A stretch of DNA of 26,836 nt, from the UHGV virus genome UHGV-0045954; one strand, 5' to 3'. Shown piece by piece: positions 20,216-25,368 of this stretch. Position numbers and translations under genes: made by a program. The stretch's first letter is position 1, and each line of letters begins with the position of its first letter. Below the pieces are notes generated by a model. The model was given only the letters and a program-made list of their open reading frames with translations. It did no database searches and was not told the DNA's origin. This DNA is from a virus.

Positions 20216-20306
20216 GAGTCGCTCCATAAAACTGAACGTCAAAAGTTTAATAATCAAAACCAAAGAAAGTCAAGAAACAAAACCATCTGTGTTTTAAAAT
20301 CAAAAC
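20216..20306. promoter_or_regulatory. immunity-region divergent promoters and operators
   Basis: Minus strand: -35 TTGACT (20273..20268), about 18-nt spacer, -10 TAAACT, driving ydaS. Plus strand: -10 TAAAAT (20295..20300) ending 7 nt before the repressor ATG (leaderless). Repeated TCAAAAC motifs at 20255 and 20299. Confidence 0.5.
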
Positions 20307-20945
20307 ATGAGCAAGCAAACTATATCTGAACGCATAACCCAACGTATGCATGCGCTAAACCTGAAAGGCAAAGACCTTGTCAATGGCACTGGCGCATCAA
20401 AAGGCTCCGTAAGTCAATGGATGAACGGTGGAGGAGCGCCGTCCTCGCGTTACATAAGTTCACTGGCAAAAATATTGAAAGTAAACGAAAATTGGCTTCT
20501 TAATGGAGGAGAGTTAAATACAGGTGATTCGCTTGATCTATCTTTACCGCCGATAAAAACGGTTCCGCTACTATCACTTCAGCAGGCAGCAAGCTGGAGT
20601 GATTATATGAAAAATTCCTCAATAACCTCTTGTGTGCAGCTTGTCGGAGAAATCCCGGTCAATACCTTTGCAGTTGTTCTAGAGAGTGACAGTATGTCAA
20701 CATCTGGTGGGGGAGTTTCCATCCCAAATGGTTCAACAGTTTTTGTTGATCCCGATCGAACCGTACAACCAGGAAATATTGTCCTTGCCTTACCCAAAGG
20801 GACCACAACACCTGTCATTCGTAAACTGGAGATAGAAGGGCCGGATATTCTTTTAGTCCCCACGAATCCTCGCTACCCTTCAATTATGCTGGATGATCTA
20901 TCTTGCATATTGGGCGTATGCTTTAAAATTCAACAAGATATTTAA
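20307..20945 (+). CDS. CI-like repressor (HTH plus S24 LexA-like autopeptidase domain)
   Basis: 212 aa; N-terminal HTH (GTGASKGSVSQWMNG), C-terminal SDSM Ser motif and downstream Lys (VIRKLE); no SD, consistent with a leaderless pRM-type transcript. Confidence 0.8.
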   Translation: MSKQTISERITQRMHALNLKGKDLVNGTGASKGSVSQWMNGGGAPSSRYISSLAKILKVNENWLLNGGELNTGDSLDLSLPPIKTVPLLSLQQAASWSDYMKNSSITSCVQLVGEIPVNTFAVVLESDSMSTSGGGVSIPNGSTVFVDPDRTVQPGNIVLALPKGTTTPVIRKLEIEGPDILLVPTNPRYPSIMLDDLSCILGVCFKIQQDI

Positions 20946-21012
20946 CCAACCTCATCTATTTGATTAACTGTATGCCATCGTGGTGATGGCTTAACAGCTG
21001 CCTGCTTAAAAT

Positions 21013-21058
21013 GTTTTGATAAAAAAACATTGACCTGAAAAGTTCGTTTTTCTAAACT
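21013..21058 (+). promoter_or_regulatory. pL-like promoter with operator-like motif
   Basis: -35 TTGACC (21030..21035), 17-nt spacer, -10 TAAACT (21053..21058); GTTTTGAT at 21013 is the reverse complement of the ATCAAAAC motif seen in the divergent-promoter region. Confidence 0.4.
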
Positions 21059-21376
21059 TCATTCATTCCCTCACCCCATCCTACAGAATGCAGGGCAATA
21101 CTTCGAGTTACCAGGCAGTGGTCAGGGGTTAAGTAGCCAGCCCGAGGCGTAAGAACATGACGGCAGGGTTCAACTTTAATAACTATGCAGCAGGTTTTTG
21201 TTCCGCTACCCCGGCGTTAAGGGGAAACAGAGGATTTCTCAGTGGGCGAAGTCAAACATCAGAATGGAAGGCGTCCAGGGATCAGCAAAGAAACAGCGAT
21301 GGCGCTTTATATTGATATCAGCGCCATTGCCGGACAGGTAAGAATTATCAGAGCGGTAACTAAGCGGTATGCGCCT

Positions 21377-21577
21377 TTACTTCAGAAAGTCTCTGGTGAG
21401 TGCACCGAAGATATTGTCAACGATTTCGTCATCAAACTGCGAGGACTCATCTTCAGTTACAAGGTGACCACAATTTTTGCAGATGGCTCCCGCGAAACTG
21501 TCAGAGCCCTGCGGTTTAAAGGATGTGTCAAAGACTTCGCCACCACATTCTGGGCAAGAAAACTTGATTGTATTCAT
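21377..21577 (-). CDS. small zinc-ribbon protein (66 aa)
   Basis: ATG 21577 with GAGAGGAAA RBS; two CxxC pairs at ribbon spacing (CPECGG ... CKNCGH); overlaps antisense to a 118-aa plus-strand ORF, see findings. Confidence 0.45.
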   Translation of the reverse strand: MNTIKFSCPECGGEVFDTSFKPQGSDSFAGAICKNCGHLVTEDESSQFDDEIVDNIFGALTRDFLK

Positions 21578-21669
21578 AACCAATTTCCTCTCGAGTAACA
21601 GACCCCTCAGAGGATACCACCTCGCCTGACGTGGTTAAAAGCAGGCAACGCTAACCACAAGGAGCCGAC

Positions 21670-21888
21670 ATGCAGAAACGAGAACCCGTCATCATCGCGC
21701 CAGACTATACCGATGATGAACTTTATGAGTGGATGCGCCAGAAAATTAATGCAGCGCAGGATTTGAAATGGGCCAATGAAGCCAGGGCTAAGCAGGCTGA
21801 AAATCTGTCCGCTCTGGAGCAGGATATCACCAGGCTGGAAAAAGCAGCGGCATTAAGCATTGCCAGAATGATTACATACCCGCGTTAA
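21670..21888 (+). CDS. hypothetical coiled-coil protein (72 aa)
   Basis: ATG 21670 with AAGGAG SD at 6 nt; product MQKREPVIIAPDYTDDELYEWMRQKINAAQDLKWANEARAKQAENLSALEQDITRLEKAAALSIARMITYPR. Confidence 0.6.
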   Translation: MQKREPVIIAPDYTDDELYEWMRQKINAAQDLKWANEARAKQAENLSALEQDITRLEKAAALSIARMITYPR

Positions 21889-22456
21889 TAGATAACCAAC
21901 GAAGCTAAGGTTGGTAATTAAGGAGTTCTCCACGGGTGAGGTGGAGTGCGTGCGCCGGACACGGGTGAGCATCCGGCACTGACAGTTTACTGAAAGGATA
22001 TTTCCCTGAAAAGTCAGACCATAACGCGAAAGCGCACGGCGAGGTAGCTGGTTCATAGATAGCCTGTCGTTAAATTTTCGTCGACCGTGCGCTTCCGGTT
22101 GTGGCAATCCGCGAAATGGCGCGGCGGTAAGTATGGCGGGGTTATTCCTTCCCCCGTTGAGGACACCGGGTTGTCAGGTTGACCATACGCTTAAGTGACA
22201 ACCCCACTGCAACGCCCTCTGTTATCAATTTTCTGGTGACGTTTGGCGGTATCAGTTTTACTCCGTGACTGCTCTGCCGCCCTTTTTAAAGTGAATTTTG
22301 TGATGCGGTGAATGCGGCTAAGCGCACGCGGAACAGTTAAAACCAAAAACAGTGTTATGGGTGGATTCTCTGTATCCGGCGTTAATTGTTAACTGGTTAA
22401 CGTCACCTGGAGGCACCAGGCACCGCATCACAAAACTCATTGTTGAGGGCGCGATA

Positions 22457-22645
22457 ATGAAAACGTTATTACCAAACGTTAATACGTCTGAAGGTTGTTT
22501 TGAAATTGGTGTCACTATCAGTAATCCTGTATTTACTGAAGATGCCATTAACAAAAGAAAACACGAACGGGAGTTATTAAATAAAGTATGCATTGTTTCA
22601 ATGCTGGCCCGTTTACGTCTGATGCCAAAAGGATGTGCACAATGA
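22457..22645 (+). CDS. hypothetical small protein (62 aa)
   Basis: ATG 22457 with GAGGG RBS; stop overlaps next start (ATGA), indicating translational coupling. Confidence 0.45.
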   Translation: MKTLLPNVNTSEGCFEIGVTISNPVFTEDAINKRKHERELLNKVCIVSMLARLRLMPKGCAQ

Positions 22646-22833
22646 ATCCAGTATTTGCACTTATTCTGACGGTTTTTCTTGTTTCCGGAGAGCCAGTTGA
22701 TATTGCAGTCAGTGTTCACAGAACAATGCAGGAATGTATGGCAGCAGCAACCGAACAGAAAATTCCAGGCAACTGTTATCCGGTCGATAAAGTTATTCAC
22801 CAGGATAATAACGAAATCCCGGCAGGATTTTAA
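22642..22833 (+). CDS. hypothetical small protein with N-terminal signal-peptide-like segment (63 aa)
   Basis: ATG 22642 coupled to upstream ORF; MNPVFALILTVFLVSGEP... hydrophobic N-terminus; two Cys in the mature region. Confidence 0.45.
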   Translation: MNPVFALILTVFLVSGEPVDIAVSVHRTMQECMAAATEQKIPGNCYPVDKVIHQDNNEIPAGF

Positions 22834-22926
22834 AACAGCACCGTAATAAATATCCAGTTTCATTCTTATATGTCAGCAATGGCAGAGATTTGTTCACCCT
22901 TAAATCTGTGATGAGGTTTACCAATA

Positions 22927-25368
22927 ATGAGCACTGATAAAGAAGAATTTGCACTATATTGCGAAGCAAAAAATGACAAAGTAAGAAAACGCCTAGGAAT
23001 TAAAGGTGGTTTTTACTGGACTACAGCAAAAAAATTATCTGTTGCAATCTCCCGCTGCATTACCGCAATGGATGACAACGATTATGATGAAGACGACTTT
23101 AAAAAACCCGTCCGCGTCAATTTGCCCGTTGTTGACGACCTTCCGCCAGAAGGCGTGTTTGATACTGAATTCTGCAACCGCTATGAAAAAGGCGGGAAAG
23201 ATGGCATCACAATGACATTTATCGGCCCTTCCCCCTCTGTTCAGGACAAACCAGCCAGCACTGACAATACCAACATCAACGGCGAAGCCATGACTGAGAT
23301 TGAGGAGAGCATGCTTCTGCCTGTCTCCGGTCAGGAACTGCCCATTCGTTGGCTTGCTCAACACGGCAGCGAAAAACCAGTAACGCACGTTTCACGCGAC
23401 GAACTCCAGGCATTACACATTGCACGGGCTGAAGAACTACCGGCTGTTACTGCCCTGGCTATTTCGCATAAAACCAGTCTGCTCGACTCGCTGGAGATTC
23501 GCGACCTCCACAAACTGGTTCGTGACACTGACAAAGTTTTCCCTAATCCTGGTAATTCAGACCTGGGACTAATAACTGCTTTTTTCGAAGCATACCTAGA
23601 CGCTGACTACACTGATCGGGGTCTGCTGACAAAAGAGTGGATGAAAGGAAATCGTGTTTCACGCATCACCCGCACGGCTTCCGGTGCTAATGCTGGCGGT
23701 GGGAACAAAACCGATCGCAATCCGAATTTAGTACACACCCTCGACACACTGGATGTGGAGATTGCAGCAGCCACACTTCCGATGGATTTTAATATTTATG
23801 AAATTCCGGGCAGCGTTTATCGTCGCGCAAAAGAAGTAGTCCTGAACAAAGAAAGTCCGTTCAAAGAATGGTCCGCAGCACTTCGTGCAACCCCGGGTAT
23901 TCTGGACTATTCCCGCGCCGCTATTTTTGCACTTATCCGAAGCGCACACCCTGAATTTTATCACTACCCGGGACGCCTTCAGGGGTATATCAACGCCTAT
24001 TTGACGGAAACTGATCACGAGAACCCCAGCAAGGAAACTCTCACAGCTGCCCGGCATACGCCGGAAAAAGATATCCTGGAAGAAATTAACCGCGAGGTGG
24101 TTACTGAGCGTGAAACAGAAGAAGAAAAACCACAACCATCTGACGCAATGGCAGGTGAACAGGCAACAACTGAAACAATGGAACCGGATACAACTGAACA
24201 TGGCCAGAACGCGCAGTCGCTGGATGCTCAGTCGCAGGTGAGTTCCGCTAACCAAGTAAAAGTCACCGCTGACGAAGTAAACAAAATTATGCAGGCAGCC
24301 AATATCAGCCAGCCTGACGCCGATAAGTTACTTGCTGTATCGCGTGGTGAATTTGTTGAGGGGATTAGCGACCCTAATGATCCGAAATGGGTCAAAGGGA
24401 TCCAGACTCGCGATTCTGTGAACCAGAACCAGCATGAATCGGAACGGAACGACCAAAAAGCGGAACAAAACAGCCCAAATGCGTTACAAAACGAGCCAGA
24501 AACGAAACAATCCGAACCAGTGGCGCAACAGGAAGTGGAAAAAGTCTGCACCGCCTGCGGTCAGACCGGCGGCGGCAACTGCCCTGATTGTGGCGCGGTG
24601 ATGGGCGACGCAACATACCAGGAAACATTCGATGAAGAGTATCAGGTTGAAGTTCAGGAAGATGATCCGGAGGAAATGGAAGGCGCTGAACATCCACACA
24701 AGGAGAACACTGGCGGCAATCAGCATCACGATAGCGATAATGAAACTGGCGAGACGGCAGATCACTCAATTAAGGTGAACGGTCATCAAGAAATCACATC
24801 CACCAGCAGGACGTGTGACCATCTAATGATCGACCTTGAAACCATGGGAAAAAATCCTGATGCCCCGATCATCTCAATAGGTGCAATATTTTTCGATCCG
24901 CAAACCGGAGATATGGGACCGGAATTTAGTAAGACTATCGATCTGGAAACTGCTGGCGGAGTCATTGATCGGGACACCATTAAATGGTGGCTTAAGCAAT
25001 CACGCGAAGCGCAATCTGCCATTATGACCGATGAAATCCCGTTAGATGATGCACTGTTACAATTGCGGGAATTTATCGACGAAAAATCCGGTGAATTTTT
25101 TGTTCAGGTCTGGGGAAATGGAGCCAACTTCGACAACACGATTTTGCGCCGTTCATACGAACGGCAGGGGATCCCCTGCCCGTGGCGTTACTACAACGAT
25201 CGCGATGTACGCACAATCGTTGAGCTGGGGAAAGCCATAGACTTCGATGCCAGAACGGCTATTCCATTCGAAGGTGAGCGCCATAATGCACTTGATGACG
25301 CCCGTTACCAGGCAAAATACGTTTCAGTTATCTGGCAAAAACTGATCCCGAGTCAGGCTGATTTTTAA
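22927..25368 (+). CDS. RecE-like N-terminal region fused to a C-terminal DEDDh (DnaQ-like) 3'-5' exonuclease domain
   Basis: 813 aa. N-terminal two thirds resemble E. coli Rac RecE as recalled ([21 protein letters not shown]..., zinc ribbon [21 protein letters not shown]). C-terminus has Exo I DLET, Exo [10 protein letters not shown], Exo [12 protein letters not shown] motifs. Confidence 0.7.

Follow-up and report, generated by a model that had tools for sequence, protein, structure and literature searches.

Two overlapping antisense reading frames that share codons and travel as one cassette behind a predicted early-left promoter of a dicB-type lambdoid prophage

Some elements of lambdoid phages, such as sieB and the oop RNA (against cII) of lambda and the sar RNA of P22, are set antisense to the early operons, have a separate promoter, and serve lysogen-state expression or antisense control of the first early genes. 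None of these elements is known to share codons with another protein gene along its entire length. Examples of a long antisense overlap with a functional protein encoded by each strand are scarce among bacteria and phages, often disputed and rarely easy to show, and annotation pipelines drop one partner by rule. The cases described in enterohaemorrhagic E. coli (EHEC), namely ano/ECs2385, which lies in frame -3, and three pairs of EDL933, are based chiefly on RNA-seq, Ribo-seq and phenotypic data from a single strain (PMC5960689, PMC9927249). Also described is the regulation of the dicBF operon of E. coli K-12 (PMC10448788), an operon of the Qin prophage with the order dicBp, ydfA-ydfB-ydfC-dicF-dicB-ydfD. 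Here we analyse a stretch of 26,836 nucleotides, the virus genome UHGV-0045954 (referred to below as the window), in which an operon of this kind starts with two open reading frames (ORFs) overlapping on opposite strands. An earlier interpretation of the locus (the sequence-only reading) had left it undecided whether these ORFs form a true antisense pair or one of them is spurious. The comparative data favour the pair, whereas the part concerning expression is deduced from sequence features. Across the family as a whole, each of the two frames has accumulated substitutions in the manner usual for a protein kept by purifying selection, and the pair moves as a unit among lambdoid prophages belonging to several genera of enterobacteria. 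We think that the two ORFs probably represent a genuine antisense gene pair, which constitutes one mobile cassette of about 410 bp (roughly 21230-21650) behind a repressor-controlled early-left promoter, the plus-strand gene being transcribed from this early promoter and the minus-strand gene, a predicted zinc ribbon, from its own conserved promoter.

The plus ORF extends from a GTG at 21242 to the stop codon at 21598 and encodes 118 amino acids, or 99 amino acids if counted from the ATG at 21299. As the sequence-only reading had described, it occupies the first slot of the early-left operon and has a ribosome binding site, a Shine-Dalgarno (SD) sequence AGAGGA (GAGG at 21230-21233) 7 nucleotides upstream of the GTG. 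Its start position matches that of ydfA in K-12-type dicB operons. The zinc-ribbon ORF, likewise found as described, runs on the minus strand from the ATG at 21577 to the stop at 21377 (66 amino acids; the version of the ORF finder has 68, starting with TTG at 21583). It has its own SD sequence (GAGG, 21587-21590, minus strand) 9 nucleotides upstream of the ATG, two CxxC pairs (CPEC and CKNC, the latter in the context CKNCGH) and an acidic C-terminal half. This ORF lies wholly inside the plus ORF and in codon register with it, i.e. both proteins are read from the same nucleotide triplets, and position 1 of a plus codon is position 3 of a minus codon.

Existing annotations of the locus are divided. 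RefSeq, using PGAP, has the minus gene only, as an 'ECs_2282 family putative zinc-binding protein', with no gene on the opposite strand, whereas the phage GenBank records have only the plus ORF, as a hypothetical protein. The former annotation agrees with an explanation in which the zinc-ribbon gene alone is functional, a self-contained moron (promoter, gene and terminator) lying antisense in early operons, and the plus frame is a shadow ORF, open owing to its in-register antisense position; on balance we consider this unlikely. The latter agrees with the plus ORF being the sole gene and the zinc-ribbon ORF a chance antisense product, which we regard as very improbable. The minus ORF scores 57.2 bits (cutoff 37, E=1.1e-15) with the curated NCBIfam model NF047912 (ECs_2282 family), its residues 6-61 aligning with profile positions 1-56 of 60, a result hard to reconcile with a chance product. 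The description of this family, whose two CxxC pairs the minus ORF shares, records no function; Pfam gave just sub-threshold generic zinc-ribbon matches, and a literature search for the locus tag ECs2282 found no paper mentioning it and no expression data. Homologues of the minus ORF are up to 60% identical. The plus ORF matches phrog_21318 (E=8.8e-67, residues 20-118 on profile positions 1-99 of 99), which consists of close relatives called on the plus strand by phage annotators. A profile search with the plus alignment among 1.8 billion representatives returned just 10 clusters and hence gave no sign of a larger family, and a scan of genome contigs gave just two matches, spurious or very distant. 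The plus family is thus tiny and was never seen without the zinc-ribbon ORF, which suits the view that only the zinc-ribbon gene matters.

Homologues of both ORFs were collected by protein searches, and the corresponding DNA came from Citrobacter, Klebsiella and Enterobacter genomes, viral contigs and read assemblies. After removal of duplicates we had 52 distinct alleles of the core (21299-21577 in the window), which stem from prophages of E. coli, Citrobacter, Klebsiella and Enterobacter and fall into about eight clades; the first tree comprised 49 of them, and three more distant forms (L221, L223 and L225) were added later. Both ORFs are at the same place in all 52 alleles, including the three distant ones, whose plus protein is just 35-45% identical to that of the window. 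The plus frame is uninterrupted in 52 of 52 alleles. The four cysteines of the minus protein are invariant in the 49 alleles of the first tree and, judged by eye, are present also in L221, L223 and L225. The two ORFs were never found split. Homologues maintaining one frame and not the other, which according to the sequence-only reading would speak against a pair, are mostly missing: both frames stay intact down to the lowest identities, and the only broken copies are E. coli alleles with nonsense codons in the minus frame, to which we return below.

Substitutions were counted by parsimony on a neighbour-joining tree of the 49 alleles (416 changes). Inside the overlap (21380-21574) the changes at plus codon positions 1, 2 and 3 were 140, 37 and 84 (p=5e-14), with the peak at the third positions of the minus codons. 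The minus frame is under purifying selection. This distribution is the reverse of that expected if the plus strand alone were coding, and contradicts the notion that the zinc-ribbon ORF is a chance product. In the part of the plus ORF outside the overlap (21302-21376, 75 nucleotides) the corresponding numbers were 43, 31 and 74 (p=4.6e-5), the peak falling on plus third positions, and omega for the plus frame was about 0.4. The pattern thus reverses at the overlap boundary (Fisher p=7e-6). Five phylogenetically independent pairs of alleles each repeat both patterns, their non-overlap changes summing to 23/19/50; a sixth independent pair was left out, L221 having a one-codon indel in the non-overlap part. 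The deep branches gave 25/21/53 outside the overlap (omega about 0.3), and the control gene ydfC, counted in the same way, 6/17/28. If the zinc-ribbon gene were the only gene, the stretch outside the overlap would be its 3' untranslated region, which has no reason to show a three-base period in the plus register. We therefore conclude that the plus ORF is probably translated, now or for most of the history of the family.

Simulations, in which the root sequence was evolved on this tree and just one of the frames was subject to selection, also favour two coding frames. When only the minus frame was selected, the plus frame did not stay open in all leaves in any of 300 runs, nor in any of 400 runs weighted by E. 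coli codon usage (0/700, compared with the 52 open alleles); on average 33-35 of the 49 leaves gained a stop codon. Observed minus third positions without change numbered 15, as opposed to about 6 +/- 2 in minus-only runs, and the dispersion of third-position changes was 1.40 as opposed to 0.8; neither value was reached in any run. Minus-synonymous sites are thus over-dispersed, with invariant patches, which is unexpected if the plus frame is a mere shadow. The unchanged minus third positions cluster at 21452-21472 and 21548-21565, which are the most conserved motifs of both proteins. The first of these patches, reading CGH(L/V)VTED in the minus and LIFSYKVTT in the plus frame, shows almost no change at any codon position in all clades, and codons 53, 54, 56, 57 and 58 have no change at all. 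Neither protein by itself would demand such a degree of conservation of these 21 nucleotides. In the plus-only runs the observed ratio of position-1 to position-3 changes was obtained in 0 of 300, and the four cysteines were kept in about 9 of 49 leaves on average as opposed to 49 observed.

Further evidence for the plus gene comes from its start. All clades have strong SD sequences and start codons, including those in which these signals are located beyond the region of the hairpin described below, which would not be expected of a shadow ORF: AGGAG-ATG in L086 and L087, GGAGG-ATG in L090, AGAGGTG-ATG in L093, AAGGAG-ATG in L223, AGGAGG-ATG in L225, and AGAGGA-7-GTG in the E. coli clade, with ATG instead of GTG in L095. 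In L223 and L225 the start is 8 codons further upstream, in non-homologous sequence. The ORF on the operon strand has 93-118 amino acids across the family, and its N-terminal extensions vary among clades and remain in frame, again at odds with a functional zinc-ribbon gene alone. In the Enterobacter prophages L091, L092 and those of the L123 group, the plus ORF has a different in-frame extension of 32 amino acids with its own CxxC (MSTSAKRK...CKSCGYVE), and in L088-L090 it is in frame with an upstream ORF, resulting in an annotated product of 174 amino acids.

The sequence upstream of the plus ORF (21094-21229, plus strand) is a 5' leader shared by dicB-type operons. It agrees in every position (100%) with the leader that precedes ydfA in phage vB_EcoS-689R5 (L227), and the identity ends exactly at the SD sequence of the first gene, therefore the plus ORF would replace ydfA as a translated first gene. 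Such a swap junction at the SD is difficult to explain if only the minus strand is coding. Compared with the window, L227, which has a dicB operon of the ydfA/ydfB type, differs in promoter/operator and first gene, so the conserved leader is common to operons with different repressors. With other phages the identity of this stretch is 86-98%. Its folding is no better than that of shuffled sequences (z = +1.25), i.e. no significant structure was predicted for the leader. An ATG at 21157, inside the leader, is used in some phage records as an extended start of ydfA.

The candidate early-left promoter, the analogue of pL and dicBp, has the hexamers TTGACC (21030-21035) and TAAACT (21053-21058) separated by 17 nucleotides on the plus strand, downstream of the gene of a repressor with a Peptidase_S24 domain, and agrees with the consensus in 9 of 12 positions. 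Both the promoter and the operator-like sequence GTTTTGAT are present as the sequence-only reading had noted; the latter is one half of an 18-nucleotide inverted repeat (TGTTTT-GATAAA-AAAACA, 21012-21029), a predicted operator resembling the left operator (OL), which directly adjoins the -35 hexamer. Because promoter-like matches in this region are not above chance (5 found, 3.4 expected), the credibility of the promoter rests on the operator. Exactly two perfect copies of TGTTTT-N6-AAAACA occur in the 26.8 kb. The second (20290-20307) falls within the control region from which the cro-like gene and the repressor gene diverge; a degenerate third copy lies at 20244-20262. Such an arrangement is expected for left and right operator (OR) sites bound by one repressor, and since the operator is common to the OR region, the promoter would behave like a repressor-controlled early-left promoter.

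For the zinc-ribbon gene we propose a promoter on the minus strand consisting of TTAACC (21638-21633), a spacer of 16 nucleotides and TGg-TATCCT (21619-21611), with a predicted transcription start near 21604. The SD sequence, which is purine-rich in all clades, and about 60 nucleotides upstream of the ATG are the best conserved DNA of the cassette. The promoter block is kept in every clade, with variants such as TTCACC/TATCTT and TTAATC/TATCTT, and the TAT of the -10 hexamer is invariant in 11 representative sequences; the conservation of SD and promoter block is a further argument against a plus gene standing alone. We considered a structured RNA in this block and rejected it, as RNAalifold gave just 3 pairs without covariation and two hairpins drawn by eye were unsupported; the block is read as a promoter. 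Downstream of the zinc-ribbon stop codon the centroid structure has a terminator-like hairpin (21287-21332, minus strand) of 12 pairs with one 1x1 internal loop and a loop of 13 nucleotides, followed by UUUCUUU. It could terminate the zinc-ribbon transcript. The hairpin is partly kept in other clades, by eye with one two-sided change, and a canonical terminator does not fit in all of them; the 3' region as a whole folds no better than shuffles (z=-0.66), and a simple terminator scan missed the hairpin because of its 13-nucleotide loop. Because the ATG at 21299 lies within the same hairpin on the plus strand, GTG 21242 is favoured as the plus start in the window allele. Cassette homology stops about 12 nucleotides beyond the -35 hexamer of the zinc-ribbon promoter, and this coincidence of the cassette boundaries with the minus-strand promoter and the terminator-like hairpin is what one would expect of a self-contained zinc-ribbon moron.

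On the basis of this anatomy one can imagine how the two genes might be expressed. In the lysogen the repressor bound to the operator at 21012-21029 would shut the early promoter, and the zinc-ribbon gene would be transcribed leftward on the window from its own promoter (about 21638-21611) to the hairpin (about 21332-21287), its product being a lysogen-state protein. Upon induction, transcription from the early promoter would run head-on through the zinc-ribbon unit, the plus protein would be the first early product, and the zinc-ribbon gene would be silenced in two ways, through collision at its promoter and through annealing of the two RNAs, which are fully complementary. Expression would thus be mutually exclusive, the state of the prophage selecting which of two proteins the same DNA yields. 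That the same 200 bp act as such a state-dependent two-protein switch, each transcript silencing the other and the zinc-ribbon transcript also helping to keep the toxic DicF/DicB operon quiet, is a tentative idea, to which we attach a rather low probability. It is more speculative still that the two in-register antisense proteins, with their complementary hydropathy, bind each other, and that one of them arose by overprinting of the zinc-ribbon gene as the older of the two.

There are several points which weigh against a genuine pair or the proposed mode of its expression. In the window's own E. coli clade the changes outside the overlap were 12/5/13 (just 30 changes, omega about 0.8), indicating a near neutral plus frame; the evidence for constraint on this frame comes mainly from deep branches. 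The OLGenie-style dNN/dSN ratio of the plus frame inside the overlap, about 0.7, was not significant (P=0.17 versus simulation). The in-register antisense frame is the one most easily open by chance, and it turns synonymous changes of one strand into conservative ones of the other. The simulations are limited by parsimony counts, by a neighbour-joining tree built from the same region and by a crude acceptance rule, and should be taken as order-of-magnitude arguments. AlphaFold2, run with shallow alignments, predicted both proteins with low confidence (predicted local distance difference test scores of 57 and 55, values too low for a comparison of folds). The candidate zinc-ribbon promoter has just 8 of 12 consensus positions, below what the promoter scan lists, and the expression switch is inferred entirely from the anatomy of the locus. 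In about one sixth of the E. coli-clade loci, e.g. the L205 and L208 groups, zinc-ribbon codon 14 (equivalent to window 21536-21538) is a nonsense codon (GAA>TAA, F>L in the plus frame), and about half of these copies also have a 1-nucleotide deletion (GCGAAGTC>GCGAGTC), which shifts the frame of the plus N-terminal extension (equivalent to window 21242-21298). In a further allele of this clade, minus codon 44 is a nonsense codon. These minus-nonsense alleles could be cited in favour of the plus ORF as the only gene. We rejected them as proof that the plus gene alone matters, about half of the codon-14 copies being frameshifted in the plus N-terminal extension as well; they look like decay in defective prophages.

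The near neutral plus frame of the E. coli clade is what an isolated zinc-ribbon gene would predict, all the more as the overlap pattern in this clade is purely minus-like (43/7/13). It would also be compatible with a plus ORF that is translated beside a normal zinc-ribbon gene and in which just the translation matters, e.g. for Rho shielding of the early transcript for ydfC-DicF-dicB, the protein having no function of its own. To this possibility we assign an even smaller probability than to the shadow ORF. ORF openness and start signals are indeed the strongest signals of the plus frame, and the weak amino acid constraint in E. coli, the weak ratio inside the overlap and the low-confidence structure prediction agree with it; yet a function limited to translation does not account for the low omega on the deep branches outside the overlap, nor for the plus motifs LRGLIFSYKVTT, FWAR(K/E)L and ADGSR(E/K)TVR, which are kept at 35-45% overall identity, although, all being inside the overlap, they are confounded with constraint on the minus frame. 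Conservation compared frame by frame, as the sequence-only reading had proposed, thus revealed constraint on the minus frame and, family-wide, on the plus frame, the latter being weak in the E. coli clade and inside the overlap. We prefer the antisense pair as the explanation of the whole.

The plus ORF had also been called N-like. This holds for its position; a function like that of N is not borne out. The ORF has no match to N proteins in Pfam, NCBIfam or PHROG and no clear arginine-rich motif (the N-terminal extension, variable among clades, is mildly basic). No boxA was found within 3 mismatches at 20687-24097, which covers the promoter, the cassette, ydfC, DicF and the dicB stretch, and no boxB and no Rfam match either. 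In one clade (L090 and L135) there is a perfect consensus boxA (CGCTCTTTAACAA) on the operon strand after the conserved cassette end ...GACAGGCA, which is absent from the window; this suggests that in that clade a nut-like site may follow, rather than precede, the first gene.

The cassette follows several repressor modules: the S24 CI-type in the window, DicA in the PPompW prophages, and PaaR2-PaaA2-ParE2. In the last case, seen in some E. coli prophages (L096-L099), it is directly downstream of the PaaR2-PaaA2-ParE2 toxin-antitoxin/repressor module (cf. PMC8630535). In most prophages it comes after cI, whereas in three prophages of the Citrobacter/Klebsiella type it comes after cro, in the rightward operon. 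In every context the plus ORF has the orientation of the early operon, to which the zinc-ribbon gene is opposed. One distant zinc-ribbon relative from outside the family (CPHCG...CGHVVTEDE) forms the N-terminus of a putative helicase, with DEAD-box-like motifs read by eye, in the viral contig IMGVR_UViG_3300011422_000092 (L121); the CGHVVTEDE motif was part of the search pattern that found it. Its occurrence in a different context speaks against a chance origin of the ribbon, and because its antisense frame is closed and full of stops, the zinc ribbon is suggested to be the older coding sequence. A PDB sequence search and PADLOC gave nothing significant, i.e. no homologue with a solved structure or defence-system annotation.

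As a whole, the window is a Qin/dicB-type lambdoid prophage. Over the 1,051 bases around the cassette, it shows 100% identity with many chromosomes of E. coli as well as with two E. coli phages obtained by induction. Reading along the plus strand, a cro-like gene and a gene in the ydaT/cII position (both on the minus strand) are followed by the repressor gene (20307-20945, plus strand, 212 amino acids, HTH_3 and Peptidase_S24), the promoter, the two overlapping ORFs, ydfC (21670-21888), the DicF RNA (22231-22282; Rfam 76.7 bits, cutoff 48), dicB, ydfD and an exonuclease of 813 amino acids; ydfC, dicB and ydfD are annotated in the identical RefSeq locus. With DicF and then dicB downstream of ydfC and of a promoter of the repressor-controlled type, the operon is a variant of the dicBF operon. 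The repressor is not of the DicA type (37.7 bits with the DicA model, cutoff 101). In the RefSeq locus (L001, 2708-3046) it appears as a 'LexA family protein' of just 112 amino acids, the S24 half, and in a phage record with 199 amino acids; the window ORF is intact over 212, and the start was probably mis-set in RefSeq. Some phage records have short minus-strand ORFs at 21853-22107 and 22191-22346, overlapping the end of ydfC and the DicF region, which may be further shadow ORFs. Elsewhere in the window Rfam matches at 11986-12174, 12450-12643, 12997-13069 and 16068-16243, all on the minus strand, indicate two copies of the small RNA STnc100, a tRNA and a sok antitoxin RNA (hok/sok-type locus).

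The comparative signature of the pair is unusually clean: the codon periodicity switches from one frame to the other precisely where the overlap begins, and both ORFs survive to 35-45% identity. We regard the pair as a candidate addition, with comparatively good support, to the few antisense overlapping gene pairs. The drop of one partner by annotation is here evident in both directions, one strand being kept in RefSeq and the other in the phage records. The locus has an experimental handle in single-base changes that put a stop codon into one frame and leave the protein of the other unaltered; the prophage can, moreover, be induced in E. coli. If our interpretation is true, this would be a documented case of a gene that arose by overprinting within a mobile module of phages, convergent promoters might let the prophage state choose between two products, the first-gene slots of early operons would deserve annotation on both strands, and the pair would bear on the control of the toxic dicBF operon.

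It is instructive to compare the locus with the systems mentioned at the outset. The window shares with the Qin dicBF operon ydfC, DicF, dicB and ydfD, the predicted repressor-controlled promoter beside a cI/cro-like switch, and a leader identical to the ydfA-type leader. It differs in the first slot, which holds the antisense cassette in the window and ydfA-ydfB in Qin, in the operator sequence, and in the repressor, which is of the autocleavable LexA/CI type, with a helix-turn-helix and an S24 domain, and not DicA. With the pL-OL-nutL-N region of lambda it has in common a repressor gene followed by an operator-overlapped promoter for the leftward early operon, of which the plus ORF is the first gene; the differences are the missing N homology, boxA/boxB (20687-24097) and Rfam element, and one operator copy seen as opposed to three. 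As in the EHEC pairs, an E. coli gene contains, in antisense orientation, a coding ORF with an SD sequence and, by prediction, a promoter of its own, but the pair of the window is in codon register, both partners are small prophage genes, and the evidence is comparative, with signs of selection on both frames across genera. Like sieB, oop and sar, the cassette would have a separate promoter firing against an early operon, and in the Citrobacter and Klebsiella prophages it occupies the cII position after cro.

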